From a virus, in the IMG/VR virus record IMGVR_UViG_3300045988_119437, positions 72,768-136,767 of that record: a stretch of 64,000 nt of DNA. One strand, given 5' to 3'. The notes under the pieces were generated by a model. It had not been told where the DNA came from. It did no database searches and saw only the letters and a list, made by a program, of their open reading frames with translations. Within the stretch, counting starts at the first letter, position 1. Every line of letters begins with the position of its first letter. Shown here in pieces: positions 17,444 through 25,003 of the stretch. The position numbers and the translations under genes are program-made.

Positions 17444-17472
17444 TTGACTTCTGTAAAGGTATCCTGTATAAT
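17444..17472 (+). promoter_or_regulatory. consensus sigma70-type promoter (TTGACT-17-TATAAT) carrying the GTATCCTGTATAATATAG motif
   Basis: TTGACT at 17444-17449, 17-nt spacer, TATAAT at 17467-17472; near-identical to the promoter at 42167. Confidence 0.6.
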
Positions 17473-17988: not shown

Positions 17989-18915
17989 ATGCTTACTGAA
18001 GAAAAGATCAACGCTTTTGCTGAAAAGTATTCTGATAGAAGCGGCGAGTTTGTTATATCGACACTTAACCATGTTATGGACTACGAAGCGGAGTGCGGGT
18101 ATGAGTTATTCGACTTCACAAAAGATGATTTTGTAAAGATGTTTGCCAAATACAATTGGGTAAACTCAAGTCGTTCATTCAGAAATGTGAAATCGATAAT
18201 CACTGGTTATATCAAGAACGAAAATCGTACAAGCATGTATGATTTGGCTGAATTCTCAGAGAGCGATGTGAGTTCAGACAATATGTACGAGGACAAGTAT
18301 TTTGCATCGGTTGATGAGTTTGTTGGTTTCTTAAACAAGTATGAAGAAGCGTATCAGATTCGTATGAATGTGATTGCTGTTTTGTACTGGATCGGTCTTA
18401 CTTCTAGTGAGGTTTCTAATCTAACAATTAACGATGTAGACTTTGAATCTCGTACTGTCCTCGATAGGACTGATGTTGACGCAAGGTTGATGGATATCAT
18501 CAAGCAGTGTTATGAAATGAAACAGTATGATGCGCCCAATATGGGAGGATACAGAACATTTTATGTCATAAATGGTGATTACATTCTTCGTAAAACAGAG
18601 GATAGAACTGGTGTAGACAGCGACCCGAAGATGTCTGTAAATACAATCCATAGTTATTTTGTGAGGCTGAATGACATTCTCGAAAAAAGACATCATACAA
18701 AGATTTTAGATCGAAGACATCTGACCAGAAATGGTGAGTATGTGAAGGTCTACGATTACTGTAAGAGTAATTCAGAGTTCAACCTTGCGGAGCTTAGTTT
18801 CGGAAATGGTAAAAAACCTCTTGCAGACATTATTGGAAGAAAGTGTAGCAAGGTAGCTTACATTAGTTTCCGGCAGGGATACAAGGGCTGGGTCGAATAC
18901 TTCCACAAAAATTAA
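17989..18915 (+). CDS. hypothetical protein (308 aa)
   Basis: ORF behind TATAAT box at 17967 and AAGGAG RBS; weak integrase-like segment LYWIGLTSSEV. Confidence 0.55.
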   Translation: MLTEEKINAFAEKYSDRSGEFVISTLNHVMDYEAECGYELFDFTKDDFVKMFAKYNWVNSSRSFRNVKSIITGYIKNENRTSMYDLAEFSESDVSSDNMYEDKYFASVDEFVGFLNKYEEAYQIRMNVIAVLYWIGLTSSEVSNLTINDVDFESRTVLDRTDVDARLMDIIKQCYEMKQYDAPNMGGYRTFYVINGDYILRKTEDRTGVDSDPKMSVNTIHSYFVRLNDILEKRHHTKILDRRHLTRNGEYVKVYDYCKSNSEFNLAELSFGNGKKPLADIIGRKCSKVAYISFRQGYKGWVEYFHKN

Positions 18916-19049: not shown

Positions 19050-20276
19050 ATGAGAACTTTGCTTCTTTTCCGTGGAGCACCAGGATGCGGGAAGTCCACC
19101 TATATTAAAGAGCATGATCTGGAAAAGTATACGCTTAGTGCCGATACGATTCGCCTTATGTGTCAGGGTGGTCAGGAAACCCCGGCTGGCACAATGGAAA
19201 TCTCTCCCCAGAACGATGATGTTGTCTGGGATATGCTCTTTAAACTGTTGGAGGTTCGGATGTCTCACGGTGAATTTACCGTGATTGATGCAACGAACTC
19301 TAAAACTGTTGAAATCAATCGCTATAAGAATCTTGCAAAGCAGTACAGATACAGAATGTACATCATCGACATGACTGATTTGCCGATTGATGAGTGTAAA
19401 CGGCGTAATGCGCTTCGTGCTCCTCTGAAGCGAGTTCCAGATGCTGCTATTGATAAGATGTATGCGCGATTTGCTACACAGAAGATTCCGTCTGGTGTGA
19501 CTGTACTTTCGTCAGATATAAATGTCCTTGAGAAATTGAACTATGTTCCGCAGGACTTTAGCAACTGGAACAAAATTCATATCATCGGTGATGTACATGG
19601 ATGTTACAGTTGCTTGAAAGAGTACCTTGGTGACCTGAAGGATGATGAACTGTACATTTTTGTTGGTGATTATCTGGATCGCGGTATTGAGAATGTAGAG
19701 ATGTTCAAGTTCCTTTGTGATGTTGTAGACAATAATCGGAAGAATGTAATTCTCCTTGAAGGAAATCACGAACGGTGGCTGAACAAGTGGGGCCATGATG
19801 AACCGGTTCAGAGCGAGGAGTTCGCAAACTACACTCGTCCGCAGCTTTTCAAAGCAGGGATTGACCATAATACGGCTCGTAAGGTTTATTCGAGAGTAGG
19901 ACAGTGCTCCTATTTTGATTACGACGAGAAAAGATACTTCGTTAGCCATGGTGGTTTGAGTTATTTGCCTGAATTTCTACCATTCGTGTCTACTGACCAG
20001 ATGGTAAAGGGTGTTGGTCGCTATCCTGATATGCTAACCGTGGCTGAGTCTTGGGAAAAATCGATGCCGGATAGCTACATTCAGATATTCGGTCATCGAA
20101 ATGTGCAGGATGTTCCTATTGATATGGGGCATCGGTGCTACAACCTCGAAGGAAAAATCGAGTTTGGTGGATATCTCCGTTGCGTGGAACTTGAACACGG
20201 TCAGTCAATCAAATGTGTAGAAACAAAGAATGATGTGTTCCGAAAAGAGGAGTCAAAGACTGAAACTACCGTTTAA
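19050..20276 (+). CDS. polynucleotide kinase-phosphatase (Pnkp-like: P-loop kinase + calcineurin-type phosphoesterase)
   Basis: N-terminal FRGAPGCGKST Walker A; C-terminal GDVHGC, GDYLDRG, GNHE metallophosphoesterase motifs. Confidence 0.7.
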   Translation: MRTLLLFRGAPGCGKSTYIKEHDLEKYTLSADTIRLMCQGGQETPAGTMEISPQNDDVVWDMLFKLLEVRMSHGEFTVIDATNSKTVEINRYKNLAKQYRYRMYIIDMTDLPIDECKRRNALRAPLKRVPDAAIDKMYARFATQKIPSGVTVLSSDINVLEKLNYVPQDFSNWNKIHIIGDVHGCYSCLKEYLGDLKDDELYIFVGDYLDRGIENVEMFKFLCDVVDNNRKNVILLEGNHERWLNKWGHDEPVQSEEFANYTRPQLFKAGIDHNTARKVYSRVGQCSYFDYDEKRYFVSHGGLSYLPEFLPFVSTDQMVKGVGRYPDMLTVAESWEKSMPDSYIQIFGHRNVQDVPIDMGHRCYNLEGKIEFGGYLRCVELEHGQSIKCVETKNDVFRKEESKTETTV

Positions 20277-21260
20277 ATGAAAACTGAGTTCGATAACGCA
20301 GAACTTGTCAGTAAGATGCGTCAAAGCAAATATGTGTTTGAGAAGCGATTCGGAGATATTTCTTCTTTCAACTTCTCTCGTGAAGCATTTTATAAGAAGC
20401 ACTGGGATGAGGTTTCTACCAAAGCAAGGGGATTGTTCATTAACACAAAGACGAATAAGATTGTAGCTCGAAGCTATGATAAGTTCTTTGCGGTCGATGA
20501 GCGGAATGAAACGAGAATTGGAAACCTACAGAACACTTTGAAGTTCCCGGTGACTGCATATCTGAAGGAAAACGGATTTCTTGGCATTGTCTCGTATGAT
20601 GCAGAACAGGATGGTCTGTTCATTGCAAGTAAATCCACTCCTGAAGGGCCTTTTGCAGATATGTTCCGAAAGATTCTCATGGATACGACTTCTGATGAAG
20701 ACCGTAAGAATCTGAAGGAAGTTGCAAAAGAGAATGGTTCCATCATTTTTGAGGTGATTGATCCTGTAAATGATGCTCATATCATCGAATACAAGAAACC
20801 GCACATTGTTTTGCTGGATATTGTTGCGAATGATATGAACTTCAGTGTGATGGATTACGATGATCTGAAGCGTGCTGCTGAAAAGTGTCATTTGCAGATT
20901 AAGGAGAAGGTTAAAATCTTTGAGAGCTGGAGTGAATTCTATCCTTGGTACGAGGGAGTCATGAACGAGAACTATCTGCATCATGGCTTTGAACATATTG
21001 AAGGGTTTGTCCTTCTGGATAGCACGAACTTTATGTTCAAGCTGAAGCTTCCTTACTACAAACACTGGAAGTTTTTGCGTAGTGTTATGCAGAGCGTTCA
21101 AAAGCGTGGCTATTATGAAAATACCGCAAAGTTGTTTACTGCTGAGGATAACCTGTTCTATGGTTGGATGCGTGAGCAACGAGAGAAAGACCAGGAATCT
21201 TTTTGCAAGAAGGGTATTATTCAGTTACGGAATGAATTCTATGAGAATCGGCACGAATAA
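20277..21260 (+). CDS. ligase-like nucleotidyltransferase (putative RNA ligase partner of Pnkp)
   Basis: Start abuts the Pnkp stop (TAAATG); candidate motifs I KENG, IV EGFVLLD, V FKLKL. Confidence 0.45.
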   Translation: MKTEFDNAELVSKMRQSKYVFEKRFGDISSFNFSREAFYKKHWDEVSTKARGLFINTKTNKIVARSYDKFFAVDERNETRIGNLQNTLKFPVTAYLKENGFLGIVSYDAEQDGLFIASKSTPEGPFADMFRKILMDTTSDEDRKNLKEVAKENGSIIFEVIDPVNDAHIIEYKKPHIVLLDIVANDMNFSVMDYDDLKRAAEKCHLQIKEKVKIFESWSEFYPWYEGVMNENYLHHGFEHIEGFVLLDSTNFMFKLKLPYYKHWKFLRSVMQSVQKRGYYENTAKLFTAEDNLFYGWMREQREKDQESFCKKGIIQLRNEFYENRHE

Positions 21261-21329: not shown

Positions 21330-21419
21330 GCCCAAGTGATGGAATGAGGTAGACATGAAGCTCCCAAACAGCTTTGCGTGAGATATCGCGTGCGGTTTCG
21401 AATACCGCCTTGGGCACCA
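21330..21419 (+). tRNA. tRNA-Leu(CAA), type II, CCA encoded
   Basis: Acceptor GCCCAAG/CTTGGGC, anticodon stem AAGCT/AGCTT, loop CCCAAAC, variable arm, T arm GCGGT-TTCGAAT-ACCGC; C33 unusual. Confidence 0.65.
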
Positions 21420-21459
21420 GAGTCCGAATATTCACCTATTAAATACTGGAGGCAAGTTC

Positions 21460-22356
21460 ATGAAAAGAATTGAAAAATTTTCAAAAGAAGAGATCGAGCA
21501 GATTTTTAAAGAGAGCAACAACTGGGCTACTGTGGCTGAGAAACTTGGTTACAGCAAATTCGGAGGAAGCTCTAGGGATGTAATCCAAACATATGCAGAC
21601 GAAAATAATATTGACACTTCTCATTTTACGGGACAAGGTTAGAATAAAGGTAATATTGATTTGACAAGATTTAAACAGGGCGTTCCATTCAAAGGGTTAA
21701 GAGAATCGCTCTTACTCATAAGAGAACATAAATGTGAATGCTGTGGAAACAAGGAATAGATGGGAAAGGAAATTTCGTTAGAAGTTCATCATATTGATGG
21801 AGATAGGCTGAATAATGAGTTATCAAATCTCAAGCTACTGTGTCCTAATTGTCATTCACAAACAGAAAATTATTGCGGGAGAAATATTAAGAGACATAGA
21901 GCTGTATCCGATGAAGAGTTTGTAAAGGCGCTTAAAACATCGAAGTCTATTGGTGAGGCGTTAGGAAAAGTGGGAATAAATTACATAGCTAAAAGCTGGT
22001 ATGAAAAAGCACGAGAACTTATGCTTGAAAATGAAATCAAGTTCCCGAAGAAAGAAACAATACAAAAAGGAAAGAACGAACGCAAAAAGCGCGAGACAAA
22101 ATCTTGCGCAAAATGTGGGAAAGAATTGAGTCCAAGAACAAAAGGGACACTATGCAAAGAATGTCTTTATAGTCTTCCATACAGAAGATCTAAAGGGTTG
22201 CCAGAAAGAAGTCAGCTTGAAAAAGATATCCGTGTTATGTCATTTTCTAAAGTTGGAGAAAAGTATGGTGTAACAGGAACTTCTATTCGTAAGTGGTGTA
22301 AATACTATGGACTGCCTTATAGAAGATCCGATATAAACAATACTAGCAAAGAATAA
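21460..22356 (+). CDS. HNH homing endonuclease with NUMOD-like repeats, interrupted by two in-frame TAG codons (21640, 21757)
   Basis: Single frame reads ...HFTGQG-TAG-NKGN...HKCECCGNKE-TAG-MGKEISLEVHHIDGD...NLKLLCPNCHS; HNH motif spans the second TAG. Confidence 0.6.
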
Positions 22357-22398
22357 TTTCAAAAGAATGAAGCTGTATTTTATACAGCTTCTGTATAT

Positions 22399-22486
22399 GC
22401 CGCAGTGATGGAGTGACATACATTTCCCGCTTAAACCGGGACGCCTGAAACACGGATCGTGGGTTTGAATCCCACCTGCGGCACCA
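22399..22486 (+). tRNA. tRNA-Leu(TAA), type II, CCA encoded
   Basis: Acceptor GCCGCAG/CTGCGGC, anticodon stem TCCCG/CGGGA, loop CTTAAAC, T arm GTGGG-TTTGAAT-CCCAC. Confidence 0.65.
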
Positions 22487-22489
22487 TAT

Positions 22490-22563
22490 CCAGAATGTAG
22501 TGTAATGGCAGCACGCTGCGTTTGGGACGCAGAAGAGCGATTCGAATTCGACATTTTGGACCA
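22490..22563 (+). tRNA. tRNA-Pro(TGG)-like; weak T stem, possible pseudo-tRNA
   Basis: Acceptor CCAGAAT/ATTTTGG, anticodon stem CTGCG/CGCAG, loop TTTGGGA, T loop TTCGAAT; only 3 bp of T stem pair. Confidence 0.3.
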
Positions 22564-22564
22564 G

Positions 22565-22585
22565 TGGAGTATTCCACTTGCTTTT
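22565..22585 (+). terminator. possible terminator hairpin
   Basis: GTGGA-GTAT-TCCAC followed by TTGCTTTT. Confidence 0.35.
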
Positions 22586-22659
22586 CATGAATACCTTCCT
22601 ATTATTCTTGGCTCTCCAAAAAAAACGGAGCAGTAGGACGCAGCAAGCCAAGTTACATA

Positions 22660-22749
22660 ATGAGGGTTCGCCAAGTGGTAAATGGCATCTGGCTTTGACC
22701 CAGACAGCGTGCTTTATAGCCGATCGTCGGTTCGATCCCGACACCCTCA
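22660..22749 (+). tRNA. tRNA-Gln(TTG)-like with an enlarged 21-nt variable region
   Basis: U1-A72 acceptor TGAGGGT/ACCCTCA, D arm TCGCCAAGTGGTAAATGGCA, anticodon loop CTTTGAC, T arm GTCGG-TTCGATC-CCGAC. Confidence 0.4.
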
Positions 22750-22754
22750 ATTTA

Positions 22755-22844
22755 TGGACACGTGATGGAATCGCAGACATGAAAGATTTAGGCTCTTTTG
22801 CCGTTAACAACGGTGTGCCCGTTCAAATCGGGTCGTGTCCACCA
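22755..22844 (+). tRNA. tRNA-Leu(TAG), type II, CCA encoded
   Basis: Acceptor GGACACG/CGTGTCC, anticodon stem AAAGA/TCTTT, loop TTTAGGC, variable hairpin CCGTT-AAC-AACGG, T arm CCCG-TTCAAAT-CGGG. Confidence 0.65.
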
Positions 22845-22947
22845 TTATCAACTTATGGTTGCGTACCGTTTGTTGATCTCCTTTGACCACTATTATTCCC
22901 AGCTCGCCAGTGATGGTGCAGTAGTGTTTTGTAAGCTGGGTTTTCAT

Positions 22948-23022
22948 GCGGCGGTCGTACAACGGCTAGTACATCAGCCTTCCAAGCTGAGGATGAGGTT
23001 TCGACTACCTTTCGCTGCTCCA
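22948..23022 (+). tRNA. tRNA-Gly(TCC), CCA encoded
   Basis: Acceptor GCGGCGG/TCGCTGC (two G-U pairs), D stem GTAC/GTAC, anticodon stem TCAGC/GCTGA, loop CTTCCAA, T arm GAGGT-TTCGACT-ACCTT. Confidence 0.65.
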
Positions 23023-23174
23023 ATCTCGTATGGGTAGGATCTTTGGCGGTCAGATCTGGCCGCGCCTGTGCGAGATACCACCCCGAAAGGGGCGAGATAT
23101 AGGAAATGTGCATCGCTGTTATTCCTTCCTCGTCTATATGATATAGATGCAATAGTGTTTTATAAGGAAGGTGC

Positions 23175-23210
23175 CCAGTTGAATAGTTGCAGCTATTTAA
23201 CTGGTTTTTA
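23175..23210 (+). terminator. rho-independent terminator-like hairpin ahead of tRNA-Met
   Basis: CCAGTT...AACTGG stem followed by TTTTTA. Confidence 0.45.
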
Positions 23211-23211
23211 T

Positions 23212-23292
23212 GGGACATTATCTCAATTGGTTAGAGAACTCAGCTCATAACTGAGCATATGTATCACGGTTCAAGTCCGACATGTCCCACCA
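23212..23292 (+). tRNA. tRNA-Met/Ile2(CAT)-like, CCA encoded
   Basis: Acceptor GGGACAT/ATGTCCC, D stem TCTC/GAGA, anticodon stem CTCAG/CTGAG, loop CTCATAA; T stem only 3 bp. Confidence 0.5.
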
Positions 23293-23396
23293 GCCCGAAA
23301 GGGCGTACATAAAACCCGCTAGAACTTTTGTTTTATAAGCGAATGAATAATATGACGTTGATACGTCTATTATTTTTCGCTCATTTTTAAAGTTTT

Positions 23397-23416
23397 AGCT
23401 ATATAATACAGGATAC
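23397..23416 (+). promoter_or_regulatory. conserved motif copy (AGCTATATAATACAGGATAC) immediately upstream of the MTase RBS
   Basis: Near-exact reverse complement of the 17455 and 42182 motif; contains a TATAAT box. Confidence 0.5.
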
Positions 23417-23419
23417 TAA

Positions 23420-25003
23420 AAGGAGGAATGGGAACTGAAACATTACGGAGATATCACACAACTCCATGGTGACCAGATTGAACCTGTTGATTGTATCACT
23501 GGAGGTTCGCCCTGCCAAGACCTTTCAATTGCCGGTAAAAGAGCCGGTCTCGCAGGCGGTCGATCTGGTCTGTTTATGGAAATGATTCGTGTGATTCGAG
23601 AGATGAGGGAGGCAACGAATGGAGAATACCCAAAGTTCGTTATCTGGGAGAATGTTAGAGGAGCATTTAGCTCAAACAAAGGAGAAGACTTCCGATGTGT
23701 TTTGGAAGAATTTTCTCACCTTGCAGAGCCAGAAGTTTCAATTCCTCGACCTTCTGGAAAAGACGGAAAATGGTCAAAATCTGGCGCAATTTCCGGTAAT
23801 GGATGGTCTATCGCATGGCGATTGTTCGATGCTCAATACTGGGGAGTGCCCCAGCGTCGCCAAAGAATCGCGCTTGTCATGGATCTTGGAGGACAACGTG
23901 CCGCAGAAATATTATTTGAGCGCACGGGCGTGTCAGGGAATCCTGAACAGAGCATCCCGGCGTGGAAAGCCATTGCCAGATCTCCTGAAAAATGCACTTC
24001 TGGAAATGATCGAATGGTGGGAGAAGATTCCTTCTGCATCGCAGGACACGTTGCAGACCGAGATGTGAGTCAAAATGGTTTAGGTGTCACAAAGGATAAA
24101 TCATATACGCTCGATACCGTTGACAAACATTGTGTCGCCTACACTTTAAAGATTCGTTCCGGTTGCGAGGGTGGTGGAAAGGGTGCTCTGGTACAGACCG
24201 AAAAGAGCGCAACGCTATCCACACTACAGGATCAAACACTAATTTGTTTGGCAGAAAACACCTCTTTACATAATTTAAAACAAAAGATTTCCTCGGCGGT
24301 ATTCGAGAGTCACAGTCAAGACGCTCGATATACCCAGCAAGGAAATACAAGCCCGTCTTGTACAGCCCAGTGGGGAACTGGTGGTAATAATATGCCACTG
24401 GTCGCTGAAAAGAAAGCTTTTGCGATGCAGCGTATTGGAGAGTATAAGGAAAGTGAACAAGCAAGTGCAATGAAATCTCGTGATTACAAAGATGCAACTG
24501 ATCTTGTGATTGAGAAAAAAGACGTAAATTGTGCTGGGTTTCCTCTTGGTTTTAGACCGGAAAACACTCGTTGTTATGATGAATGTGCGACTACACTTTG
24601 TAATGGCACAAGACCAGGATGGACAACCGGGTGTGTTCTCAATTGGATTGTTCGTCGTTTGACTCCTGTTGAATGCGAACGGCTACAGGGTTTCCCTGAC
24701 GGATGGACTGATATTGGGGAATGGACTGATGAGAATGGGAAGAAGCATAAACCCGCTGATTCTCCTCGGTATAAGGCTCTCGGTAATTCGATTGCACTTC
24801 CTCAGTGGTTCTGGATTGCACAGAAAATGAAACCCTATCTTGGCGACGGTGCTACGCTTGGCAGTTTGTTTGATGGAATCTCCGGGTTCCCTTTGGTATG
24901 GACTGAGAGTTATGGCGAAGATACAGCACGTTGGAGCTCTGAGGTTGAACCCTATTGCATTGCTGTGGCAAAATATCATTTCCCAGAAAAAGAAATCTCA
25001 TAA
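23420..25003 (+). CDS. DNA (cytosine-5)-methyltransferase with rearranged motif order (IV-VI-VIII-TRD-IX-X then I)
   Basis: PCQDLS (IV), ENV (VI), QRRQR (VIII), GNSIALP (X); MKPYLGDGATLGSLFDGISGF...YHFPEKEIS at the C-terminus looks like a canonical N-terminus with motif I; no in-frame ATG before 23576. Confidence 0.65.
   Translation, partial: KEEWELKHYGDITQLHGDQIEPVDCITGGSPCQDLSIAGKRAGLAGGRSGLFMEMIRVIREMREATNGEYPKFVIWENVRGAFSSNKGEDFRCVLEEFSHLAEPEVSIPRPSGKDGKWSKSGAISGNGWSIAWRLFDAQYWGVPQRRQRIALVMDLGGQRAAEILFERTGVSGNPEQSIPAWKAIARSPEKCTSGNDRMVGEDSFCIAGHVADRDVSQNGLGVTKDKSYTLDTVDKHCVAYTLKIRSGCEGGGKGALVQTEKSATLSTLQDQTLICLAENTSLHNLKQKISSAVFESHSQDARYTQQGNTSPSCTAQWGTGGNNMPLVAEKKAFAMQRIGEYKESEQASAMKSRDYKDATDLVIEKKDVNCAGFPLGFRPENTRCYDECATTLCNGTRPGWTTGCVLNWIVRRLTPVECERLQGFPDGWTDIGEWTDENGKKHKPADSPRYKALGNSIALPQWFWIAQKMKPYLGDGATLGSLFDGISGFPLVWTESYGEDTARWSSEVEPYCIAVAKYHFPEKEIS

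Follow-up and report, generated by a model that had tools for sequence, protein, structure and literature searches.

A predicted phage cytosine-5 DNA methyltransferase with a natural circular permutation between motifs II and III

A 64,000-nucleotide stretch of phage DNA (positions 72,768 to 136,767 of IMG/VR virus record IMGVR_UViG_3300045988_119437; hereafter the window, in whose coordinates all positions are given) carries a gene for a predicted cytosine-5 DNA methyltransferase (C5-MTase) in which motifs I and II have moved to the C terminus. Alignments to M.HhaI and to a canonical-order relative place the break between motifs II and III, a topology termed Type B, in which the new N terminus lies between these motifs and the native C and N termini are joined. 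The gene belongs, as judged by sequence comparison, to a large conserved family, and both the relocated tail and the codons upstream of the first ATG are under purifying selection. Taken as a whole, the best explanation is a solitary phage C5-MTase that is a natural permutant, starts at a CTG codon, arose by duplication and serves in restriction evasion, a reading to which we give a probability of about 0.78.

Motif order and position of the break

The C5-MTase frame lies on the + strand and is open from 23420 (preceding TAA, 23417-19) to the TAA at 25001-03; residues are numbered from CTG 23435 as residue 1 (Table 1). The product matches Pfam PF00145 with 123.9 bits (cut-off 22) and TIGR00675 with 118.8 (cut-off 100.65). 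Its linear order is III-IV-VI-VIII-target-recognition domain (TRD)-IX-X-I-II and not the canonical I to X. The C5-MTase signatures P26-C27, E72-N73-V74 and Q140-R141-R142-Q143-R144 are present and invariant across 66-89 permuted relatives, and the cofactor motifs F479-D-G481-I-S-G484, E503 and G450-N451-S452 are likewise found, with motifs I and II C-terminal. The new N terminus stands 4 residues ahead of motif III, whose G5 and D6 are invariant in alignment A3, as are Q140, R142 and R144 of motif VIII. Residues 407-424 of motif IX read RRLTPVECERLQGFPDGW, with R407, R408, E413 and L417 invariant, and the YKALGNSIALP of motif X occupies residues 446-456; in the linker region that follows, Q463, M465, P467 and Y468 are conserved in alignment A1.

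Two alignments locate the break. With phmmer, residues 3-91 of the window enzyme align to M.HhaI 57-138, 126-148 to 147-169, 396-461 to 261-314 and 476-519 to 15-56. With BLASTP against a canonical-order relative (P0328), residues 1-466 match its residues 45-480 (E 9e-102), and residues 475-517 match its residues 3-43 at 53% identity (E 3e-9). Residue 1 thus corresponds to P0328 residue 45 and M.HhaI about 55-57, and residue 517 to P0328 residue 43 and M.HhaI 54-56, so that the break falls between M.HhaI residues 56 and 57, that is, between motif II (…HFP) and motif III (HYGDIT). This is the arrangement of Type B. It is not that of the M.BssHII-type enzymes (Type H): motifs IX-X come after VIII and the TRD, and the TRD is uninterrupted. 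No second copy of motifs I-II occurs within the 64-kb window. On these alignments the window gene is a natural circularly permuted C5-MTase, as predicted from its sequence, of Type B topology.

An earlier note on this DNA, drawn from the letters alone, had described the order with motif I at the C terminus, which stands, and had taken motif I alone to be relocated, which does not: motifs I and II both moved. Its view that the C terminus joined to the N terminus gives a standard enzyme is borne out by the M.HhaI and P0328 alignments, and it was right that the cut point differs from that of M.BssHII. The initiator Met that it recognized ahead of the relocated motif I is probably not one. This Met is residue 465, 10 residues ahead of LGSLFDG; canonical relatives start 2-3 residues ahead of that segment and, because the distance exceeds theirs, Met465 is probably part of helix X or the linker and not an ancestral start.

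A conserved family of permuted genes

The C-terminal motif I-II tail is present in 120 of the 120 closest homologues, all of which end within a few residues of the window stop. In IMG/VR, 80 loci have the permuted order at the same genomic position past a tRNA island, about 50 of them intact. The window's own lineage (group A) has 55 members in IMG/VR, with 40 unique sequences, and a sister lineage (group B) comprises 28 loci, which are frameshifted. The earlier note had suggested looking for the same arrangement in related phages, and there it was found: none of the related phage loci examined has a canonical-order gene at this position, and all are permuted. A scan of 1.84 billion cluster representatives (50%-identity clusters) gave 4474 matches below 1e-30; among the best 150 of these, 116 are permuted, in that PC lies near residue 24 and some 40 residues separate motif I from the C terminus, and 16 are canonical. 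Among the best 80 loci of species-representative bacterial genomes, 16 carry an intact permuted gene and 47 a canonical one, the latter mostly in Lachnospiraceae and Anaerotruncus. Isolates with an intact permuted gene include Gemmiger sp. An87, Acutalibacter sp. 1XD8-33 and Intestinibacillus massiliensis. Two cultured phages of Faecalibacterium, FP_Toutatis and Lelie, have the permuted order in frameshifted form, their matches being split in two pieces, and the FP_Toutatis methyltransferase is annotated as two coding sequences. Megablast against deposited phages returned one partial 78% match; searches at the protein level found relatives. We conclude from these sequence searches that the permuted gene is a member of a large conserved family.

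One PHROGs family, phrog_16427 (235 positions, 'DNA methyltransferase'), matches window residues 401-517 through its positions 109-220. As it spans IX-X-I-II contiguously, fragments of permuted genes appear to be in reference sets already, unrecognized.

The earlier note had allowed for an assembly artefact, be it a chimera or a tandem duplicate that had collapsed; such a chimera would unite two ordinary methyltransferase genes. The window sequence is of metagenome type, and a collapsed tandem repeat of a canonical gene could yield reads across an X-I-II junction. Neither was borne out. For the product called from ATG 23576, 8 contigs are on record. We compared four of them, an ENA contig of 134,597 bp and three from Logan, of different runs. 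These are independent assemblies that differ in sample and assembler, and all four are identical to the window over 1609 nt (23395-25003), both the CTG and the out-of-frame ATG discussed below included. With this identity, neither a chimera nor a base error near 23428 is tenable. The same order recurs in the cultured phages FP_Toutatis and Lelie and in isolate genomes, the stop codon past motif II is conserved, and so are the promoter and Shine-Dalgarno signals ahead of motif III; we therefore regard the chance of an artefact as negligible. A sequencing error near ATG 23428 was considered separately and rejected, as the four assemblies are identical and the frame relationship is the same in every one of the 55 lineage members.

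Selective constraint and predicted fold

Across 89 diverse permuted sequences, G24, P26, C27, Q28, E72, N73, V74, R407 and R408 are invariant, as are G450, N451 and S452 of motif X and F479, G481, G484, F485 and E503 of the relocated tail. Ratios of non-synonymous to synonymous substitution rates (dN/dS, Nei-Gojobori, 40 unique group A sequences) are 0.09 for codons 2-27, 0.15 for the core, 0.20 for the variable region, 0.07 for IX-X and 0.10 for the relocated tail. The relocated tail and the codons upstream of the first ATG are thus under purifying selection. Variable sites in codons 2-27 are distributed 6/5/19 by codon position, and Ser25 alternates between the AGT and TCT/TCG codon families; this split and the codon-family switch mark codons 2-27 as clearly coding. 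No frameshift or nonsense mutation occurs in any of the 40 sequences.

AlphaFold2 was run with a 66-sequence alignment (15 close sequences gave a mean predicted local distance difference test score, pLDDT, of 36). The model reaches pLDDT 83-97 at residues 1-30, 45-160 and 410-519, and its top PDB match by Foldseek is M.HhaI (E 2.4e-8). Helix X (455-469) is modelled at a pLDDT of about 90. The tail is predicted as a strand (475-478) and a helix (484-493), both at pLDDT 91-95, a second strand (498-502) and a second helix (506-515), a pattern that fits the strand 1, helix A, strand 2 and helix B expected of motifs I and II.

Translation start and upstream signals

No in-frame ATG, GTG or TTG lies ahead of ATG 23576. 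The earlier note was correct that the frame has no ATG at its start and that ATG 23428 is out of frame. From the sequence, the translation start is most likely CTG 23435. A Shine-Dalgarno sequence, AAGGAGG, is placed 8 nt upstream of this codon (the GGAGG-to-start spacing in the window peaks at 6-9 nt), and the same aligned codon is GTG in group B and ATG or GTG in group C/~55-kb phages and in bacterial-genome copies. Resequencing of the start, which the earlier note advised, is unneeded, as a conserved CTG sits where relatives have GTG or ATG. Further upstream, TTAGCTATATAATAC fits that note's conserved promoter-like motif: the window holds 9 copies (≤3 mismatches; for example at 17466, 27003, 42189, 42309 and 63875) against 2.0 expected by chance, and a consensus scanner found no good -35 partner for it.

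A very unlikely alternative is initiation at ATG 23428 followed, within two codons, by a programmed +1 frameshift into the methyltransferase frame. This ATG is kept in 55 of 55 lineage members despite being out of frame, and 43 of them read ATG-AAA-A-CTG, where a Lys-tRNA could slip +1. However, the spacer is non-slippery in the other 12, including the window (GGAA), and their genes are still intact; the ATG lies only 1 nt past GGAGG, a spacing seen in 1 of 20 window genes; and group B, which has GTG at the CTG position, is without ATG 23428. The 4-nt spacer varies among AAAA, AACT, AAAC, GAAA, GGAA and AAGA, so there is no conserved slippery site, and since it is both variable and, in the window, non-slippery, we favour CUG initiation over a frameshift.

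A second alternative, unlikely in our judgement, is a decaying or silent gene in which the motif III-IV segment is untranslated and which yields at most a protein from ATG 23576 that lacks the catalytic Cys and has no methyltransferase activity. Gene callers do start the product at MEMIRV (P0001, P0002), the sister lineage is clearly pseudogenized and many bacterial-genome relatives are disrupted. Against this stand the dN/dS of 0.09, the 6/5/19 bias and the serine codon-family switch ahead of ATG 23576, the intact frames of all 40 unique group A sequences, and a Shine-Dalgarno sequence that is optimally spaced ahead of the CTG, with none ahead of ATG 23576.

Table 1. Features of the predicted permuted C5-MTase gene and its upstream region
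Feature	Position	Strand	Remarks
Promoter-like motif TTAGCTATATAATAC (contains TATAAT)	23395..23409	+	recurrent in window
Shine-Dalgarno AAGGAGG	23420..23426	+	conserved in every locus of groups A and B
Out-of-frame ATG	23428..23430	+	1 nt past Shine-Dalgarno; opens 14-codon overlapping frame; kept in 55/55 lineage members
Probable start codon CTG	23435..23437	+	CTG in 55/55 IMG/VR loci of lineage
Whole predicted permuted C5-MTase coding sequence	23435..25003	+	522 codons plus TAA
Motif III (GDIT), residues 5-8	23447..23458	+	aligns to M.HhaI 57-62
Motif IV GGSPCQDLS, residues 23-31	23501..23527	+	catalytic Cys27 = 23513-23515
Motif VI ENV, residues 72-74	23648..23656	+	E72, N73, V74 invariant
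Motif VIII QRRQR, residues 140-144	23852..23866	+	aligns to M.HhaI 161-165
Variable target-recognition region, about 165-400 (~235 residues)	23927..24634	+	several TL-type modules
Motif IX WIVRRLTPVECERLQGFPDGWT	24644..24709	+	aligns to M.HhaI 261-290
Motif X YKALGNSIALPQW, then helix X	24770..24808	+	G450, N451, S452 invariant
Linker QKMKPYLGDGAT (12 residues), helix X to relocated strand 1	24821..24856	+	conservation in alignment A1
Relocated motif I LGSLFDGISGFP (F-x-G-x-x-G), residues 475-486	24857..24892	+	F479, G481, G484, F485 invariant
Relocated motif II WSSEVEPYCIAVAKYHFP, residues 500-517, with Glu503	24932..24985	+	E503 invariant
Stop codon TAA	25001..25003	+	shortly past HFP, which precedes motif III in canonical enzymes

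Decayed relatives and the weight of the evidence

Several observations weigh against an intact, active permutant with a CTG start. Group B (28 loci: L001-L004, L008-L012, L014-L024 and others), from ~135-kb phages like the window's, carries a 4-nt insertion (TGT TAG C CAA) right past the catalytic Cys codon (L001 4069-4076) that creates a stop and a frameshift, and 7 of its 28 loci have further nonsense mutations in three independent events; from the insertion and these mutations, at least some phages of the window's type can do without the gene. The relocated tail scores -0.4 bits against M.HhaI (residues 476-519), which is not significant taken alone, and gives no match when searched by itself against Pfam, so its identity rests on the family relatives. 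Residue 483 of motif I in the window allele is Ser (FDGISGF), where Gly is usual (FDGIGGF). The model falls below pLDDT 50 in the variable region. The earlier note had called for structure prediction of the permuted chain: the strand-helix-strand-helix fold of the tail comes out with confidence, and its docking is something we infer from secondary structure and pLDDT rather than from measured contacts. Among bacterial start codons CTG is weak and seldom used, and the N terminus at this codon is a prediction from the sequence. Likewise, enzyme activity, target sites, CUG initiation and biological role are deductions, and methylation by the window enzyme is a putative activity.

Group B genes start with GTG, and gene callers give them a spurious N terminus, MEVFARL…. 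Programmed recoding of their TAGC insertion (stop plus +1) was raised by the constrained 27-codon piece upstream of it and was rejected as the main reading, given the extra nonsense mutations in 7 of the 28 loci.

Poly-G tracts and rearranged relatives

Several lineages have poly-G tracts of 8-11 bases within their permuted genes, and it is exactly at these tracts that the frame breaks. They occur in FP_Toutatis (L006, ~2821-2830, compared with L005) and at L149, L157, L170, L181, L185 and L222; the tract is G9 in FP_Toutatis and G10 in an intact relative. The tracts look like phase variation by slippage, as far as sequence can indicate. The longest G run of the window allele is not >4.

Other relatives show insertions and rearrangements. 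P0107 carries a LAGLIDADG intein in motif VI (ENV|C…HN|C); in L066-L068 (4168-4695) motif IX holds an in-frame insertion of 176 residues, HNH_3 plus helix-turn-helix; and P0244, of 286 residues, lacks the TRD, motif IX and the greater part of motif X. In P0310 and P0383 the order is BssHII-like (Type H-like), TRD-IX-X-I-II-III…VIII-TRD. P0402 (L088 561-2303) has motifs I-II at both ends, to be taken with caution as it is a single metagenome contig. L189 and L211, at first listed as loci with both ends, proved to be regular-expression false positives and are both canonical.

Proposed mechanism and origin

In the enzyme that we propose, the chain would begin with motif III, run through the catalytic motifs IV-VIII, a long modular TRD and motifs IX-X, and end in the strand-helix-strand-helix of motifs I and II, whose S-adenosylmethionine-binding elements would be joined to the C-terminal helix X through a short linker. 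As helix X adjoins the N terminus in canonical enzymes, the folded permutant should equal an ordinary C5-MTase. Cys27 would attack C6 of the flipped-out cytosine and Glu72 of ENV would protonate N3, with the cofactor held by F479-x-G481-x-x-G484, Glu503 and Asp6.

The permuted gene most likely arose when a canonical gene was duplicated in tandem and in frame, the upstream copy taking an internal Met codon ahead of motif III as its start and the downstream copy being cut off past motif II. Canonical relatives read …HFPxM(L/K)H(L/V)GDIT…, and in most of them the codon where the permuted genes start is ATG; a tandem duplicate in frame would thus come with a usable start ahead of motif III. The duplication-plus-truncation route put forward in the earlier note gains support from this Met codon and from the double-ended P0402. 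As to whether the permutation had a single origin or several, a neighbour-joining tree of a 157-residue core (131 permuted and 61 canonical sequences) needs 9 changes of state, a figure obtained with no bootstrap from a short alignment in which recombination is likely.

Genomic context and role

The gene stands in the order seven tRNA genes with an HNH endonuclease, methyltransferase, small open reading frames (ORFs) and replication module, the last comprising a helicase, a RecJ-like exonuclease and a DNA polymerase. The tRNA island (21330-23292) holds Leu x3, Pro, Gln, Gly and Met genes and encloses an HNH homing-type endonuclease ORF (21760-22356). No restriction-enzyme-like gene is found among the flanking genes (tRNAs, HNH endonuclease, three unannotated small ORFs and replication genes), which points to a solitary phage methyltransferase. 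Its role is most plausibly restriction evasion: phage DNA would be methylated against host restriction, possibly at several different sites, and the CTG start would keep expression low.

The variable region contains the TL-type modules SYTLDT, SATLST, SPSCTAQWGTGGNNMPLV and ATTLCNG. Blocks of the TRD are gained and lost between relatives, and different segments match methyltransferases of different phages. Modules that come and go and match different phages piecewise suggest more than one target specificity, and the window enzyme may be multispecific.

Further features of the neighbourhood are given for completeness. ARAGORN reports a 90-nt tRNA-Gln(TTG) and an 81-nt tRNA-Met(CAT), both unusually long for their type. 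Hairpins followed by T-runs occur at 23175-23204 (a 13-bp stem just ahead of tRNA-Met) and at 23354-23376 (GACGTTGATACGTC, then the T-run), the second lying between tRNA-Met and the methyltransferase promoter-like motif. At 19050-21260 a polynucleotide kinase-phosphatase/RNA ligase is encoded as two abutting ORFs (408 and 327 residues; …GTT TAA ATG…), and its relatives are one 736-residue ORF (L001 267-2477). An integrase-like ORF (17989-18915; phrog_5830, E 2e-12) lies upstream of these RNA repair genes, in surroundings that otherwise resemble a large lytic-type replication region.

Discussion

The break seen here has been made by engineers. Permutants of M.MpeI and M.SssI, CG-specific enzymes of mycoplasmas, were constructed by Albert et al. 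in 2018 (PMC5944983), and the cut between motifs II and III (Type or Class B; constructs cp62M.MpeI, cp58M.SssI) yielded by far the greatest activity of ten active topologies. The same study found 27 natural permuted C5-MTases in REBASE, all broken in the variable region, and suggested weaker cofactor binding as a reason why Type B seemed unused in nature. A 2020 review still gives 'one alternative permutation' (PMC7544214), and our literature search, incomplete and with REBASE not covered, found no later account of Type B enzymes in nature. A large natural family cut between II and III contradicts the reported absence, and the idea of weaker cofactor binding becomes testable on natural enzymes. 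Related phages and prophages hold canonical, double-ended and permuted forms next to one another and so offer real material for the model of permutation by duplication.

In the window lineage gene callers start the product at the internal ATG and so drop the catalytic Cys, or else they report frameshifted versions; profiles then match no more than a part of the protein, so that permuted enzymes are easily misjudged in databases. Natural permutants in which the C-terminal helix is covalently tied to the cofactor-binding strand are what engineers had sought for split-enzyme targeted methylation. Phages of Oscillospirales and other gut Clostridia commonly carry the family, which therefore probably shapes restriction evasion there. 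More speculatively, and to our minds doubtful as a whole, this could be the first recognized natural Type B family, with an output that phages deliberately throttle or switch, the window's lineage through the invariant CUG and other lineages through the poly-G tracts of 8-11 bases, where the frame would be toggled; it would then be a phage-borne, multispecific on/off epigenetic switch in gut Clostridia.

Comparison with known systems sets the window gene apart in several respects. It shares with cp62M.MpeI and cp58M.SssI the N terminus between II and III and the fusion of the old C-terminal helix to the old N terminus, and differs from them in being natural and phage-borne, with a much longer variable region and an unrelated TRD. 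The Type H enzymes (M.BssHII, M.Alw26I, M2.Eco31I, M.Esp3I and M2.BsaI) are natural permutations of the same fold for which the same duplication model applies; their break, however, lies in the variable region, with IX-X before I-VIII and the domains intact, whereas that of the window enzyme lies inside the catalytic domain. The class beta amino-methyltransferases (M.PvuII, M.RsrI and CcrM) follow the same linear logic of motif IV, TRD and then motif I, but they methylate exocyclic nitrogens, have a DPPY-type motif IV and are obligate dimers (PMC7544214), and are related to the window enzyme by fold only.

Closest are the canonical Clostridia prophage C5-MTases (P0328, and Anaerotruncus colihominis DSM 17241 locus L211), which are 39% identical over the whole core and share TRD modules with the window enzyme (LNDQGG…GTLRA…, GTGGNN.PLV); their motifs I-II are N-terminal, their chain ends past helix X and their N terminus is 53% identical to the window tail. 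The Bacillus phage enzymes M.SPRI, M.Phi3TI and M.Rho11sI are solitary multispecific C5-MTases with long tandem-module variable regions in canonical order; within the phage collection, no TRD similarity to such enzymes was detectable. A rearranged C5-MTase is also known from plants, DRM2 (tobacco NtDRM), which gives weak PDB matches to the window enzyme via motif IV; in this eukaryotic enzyme motifs VI-X precede I-V, a cut point other than the one between II and III described here.

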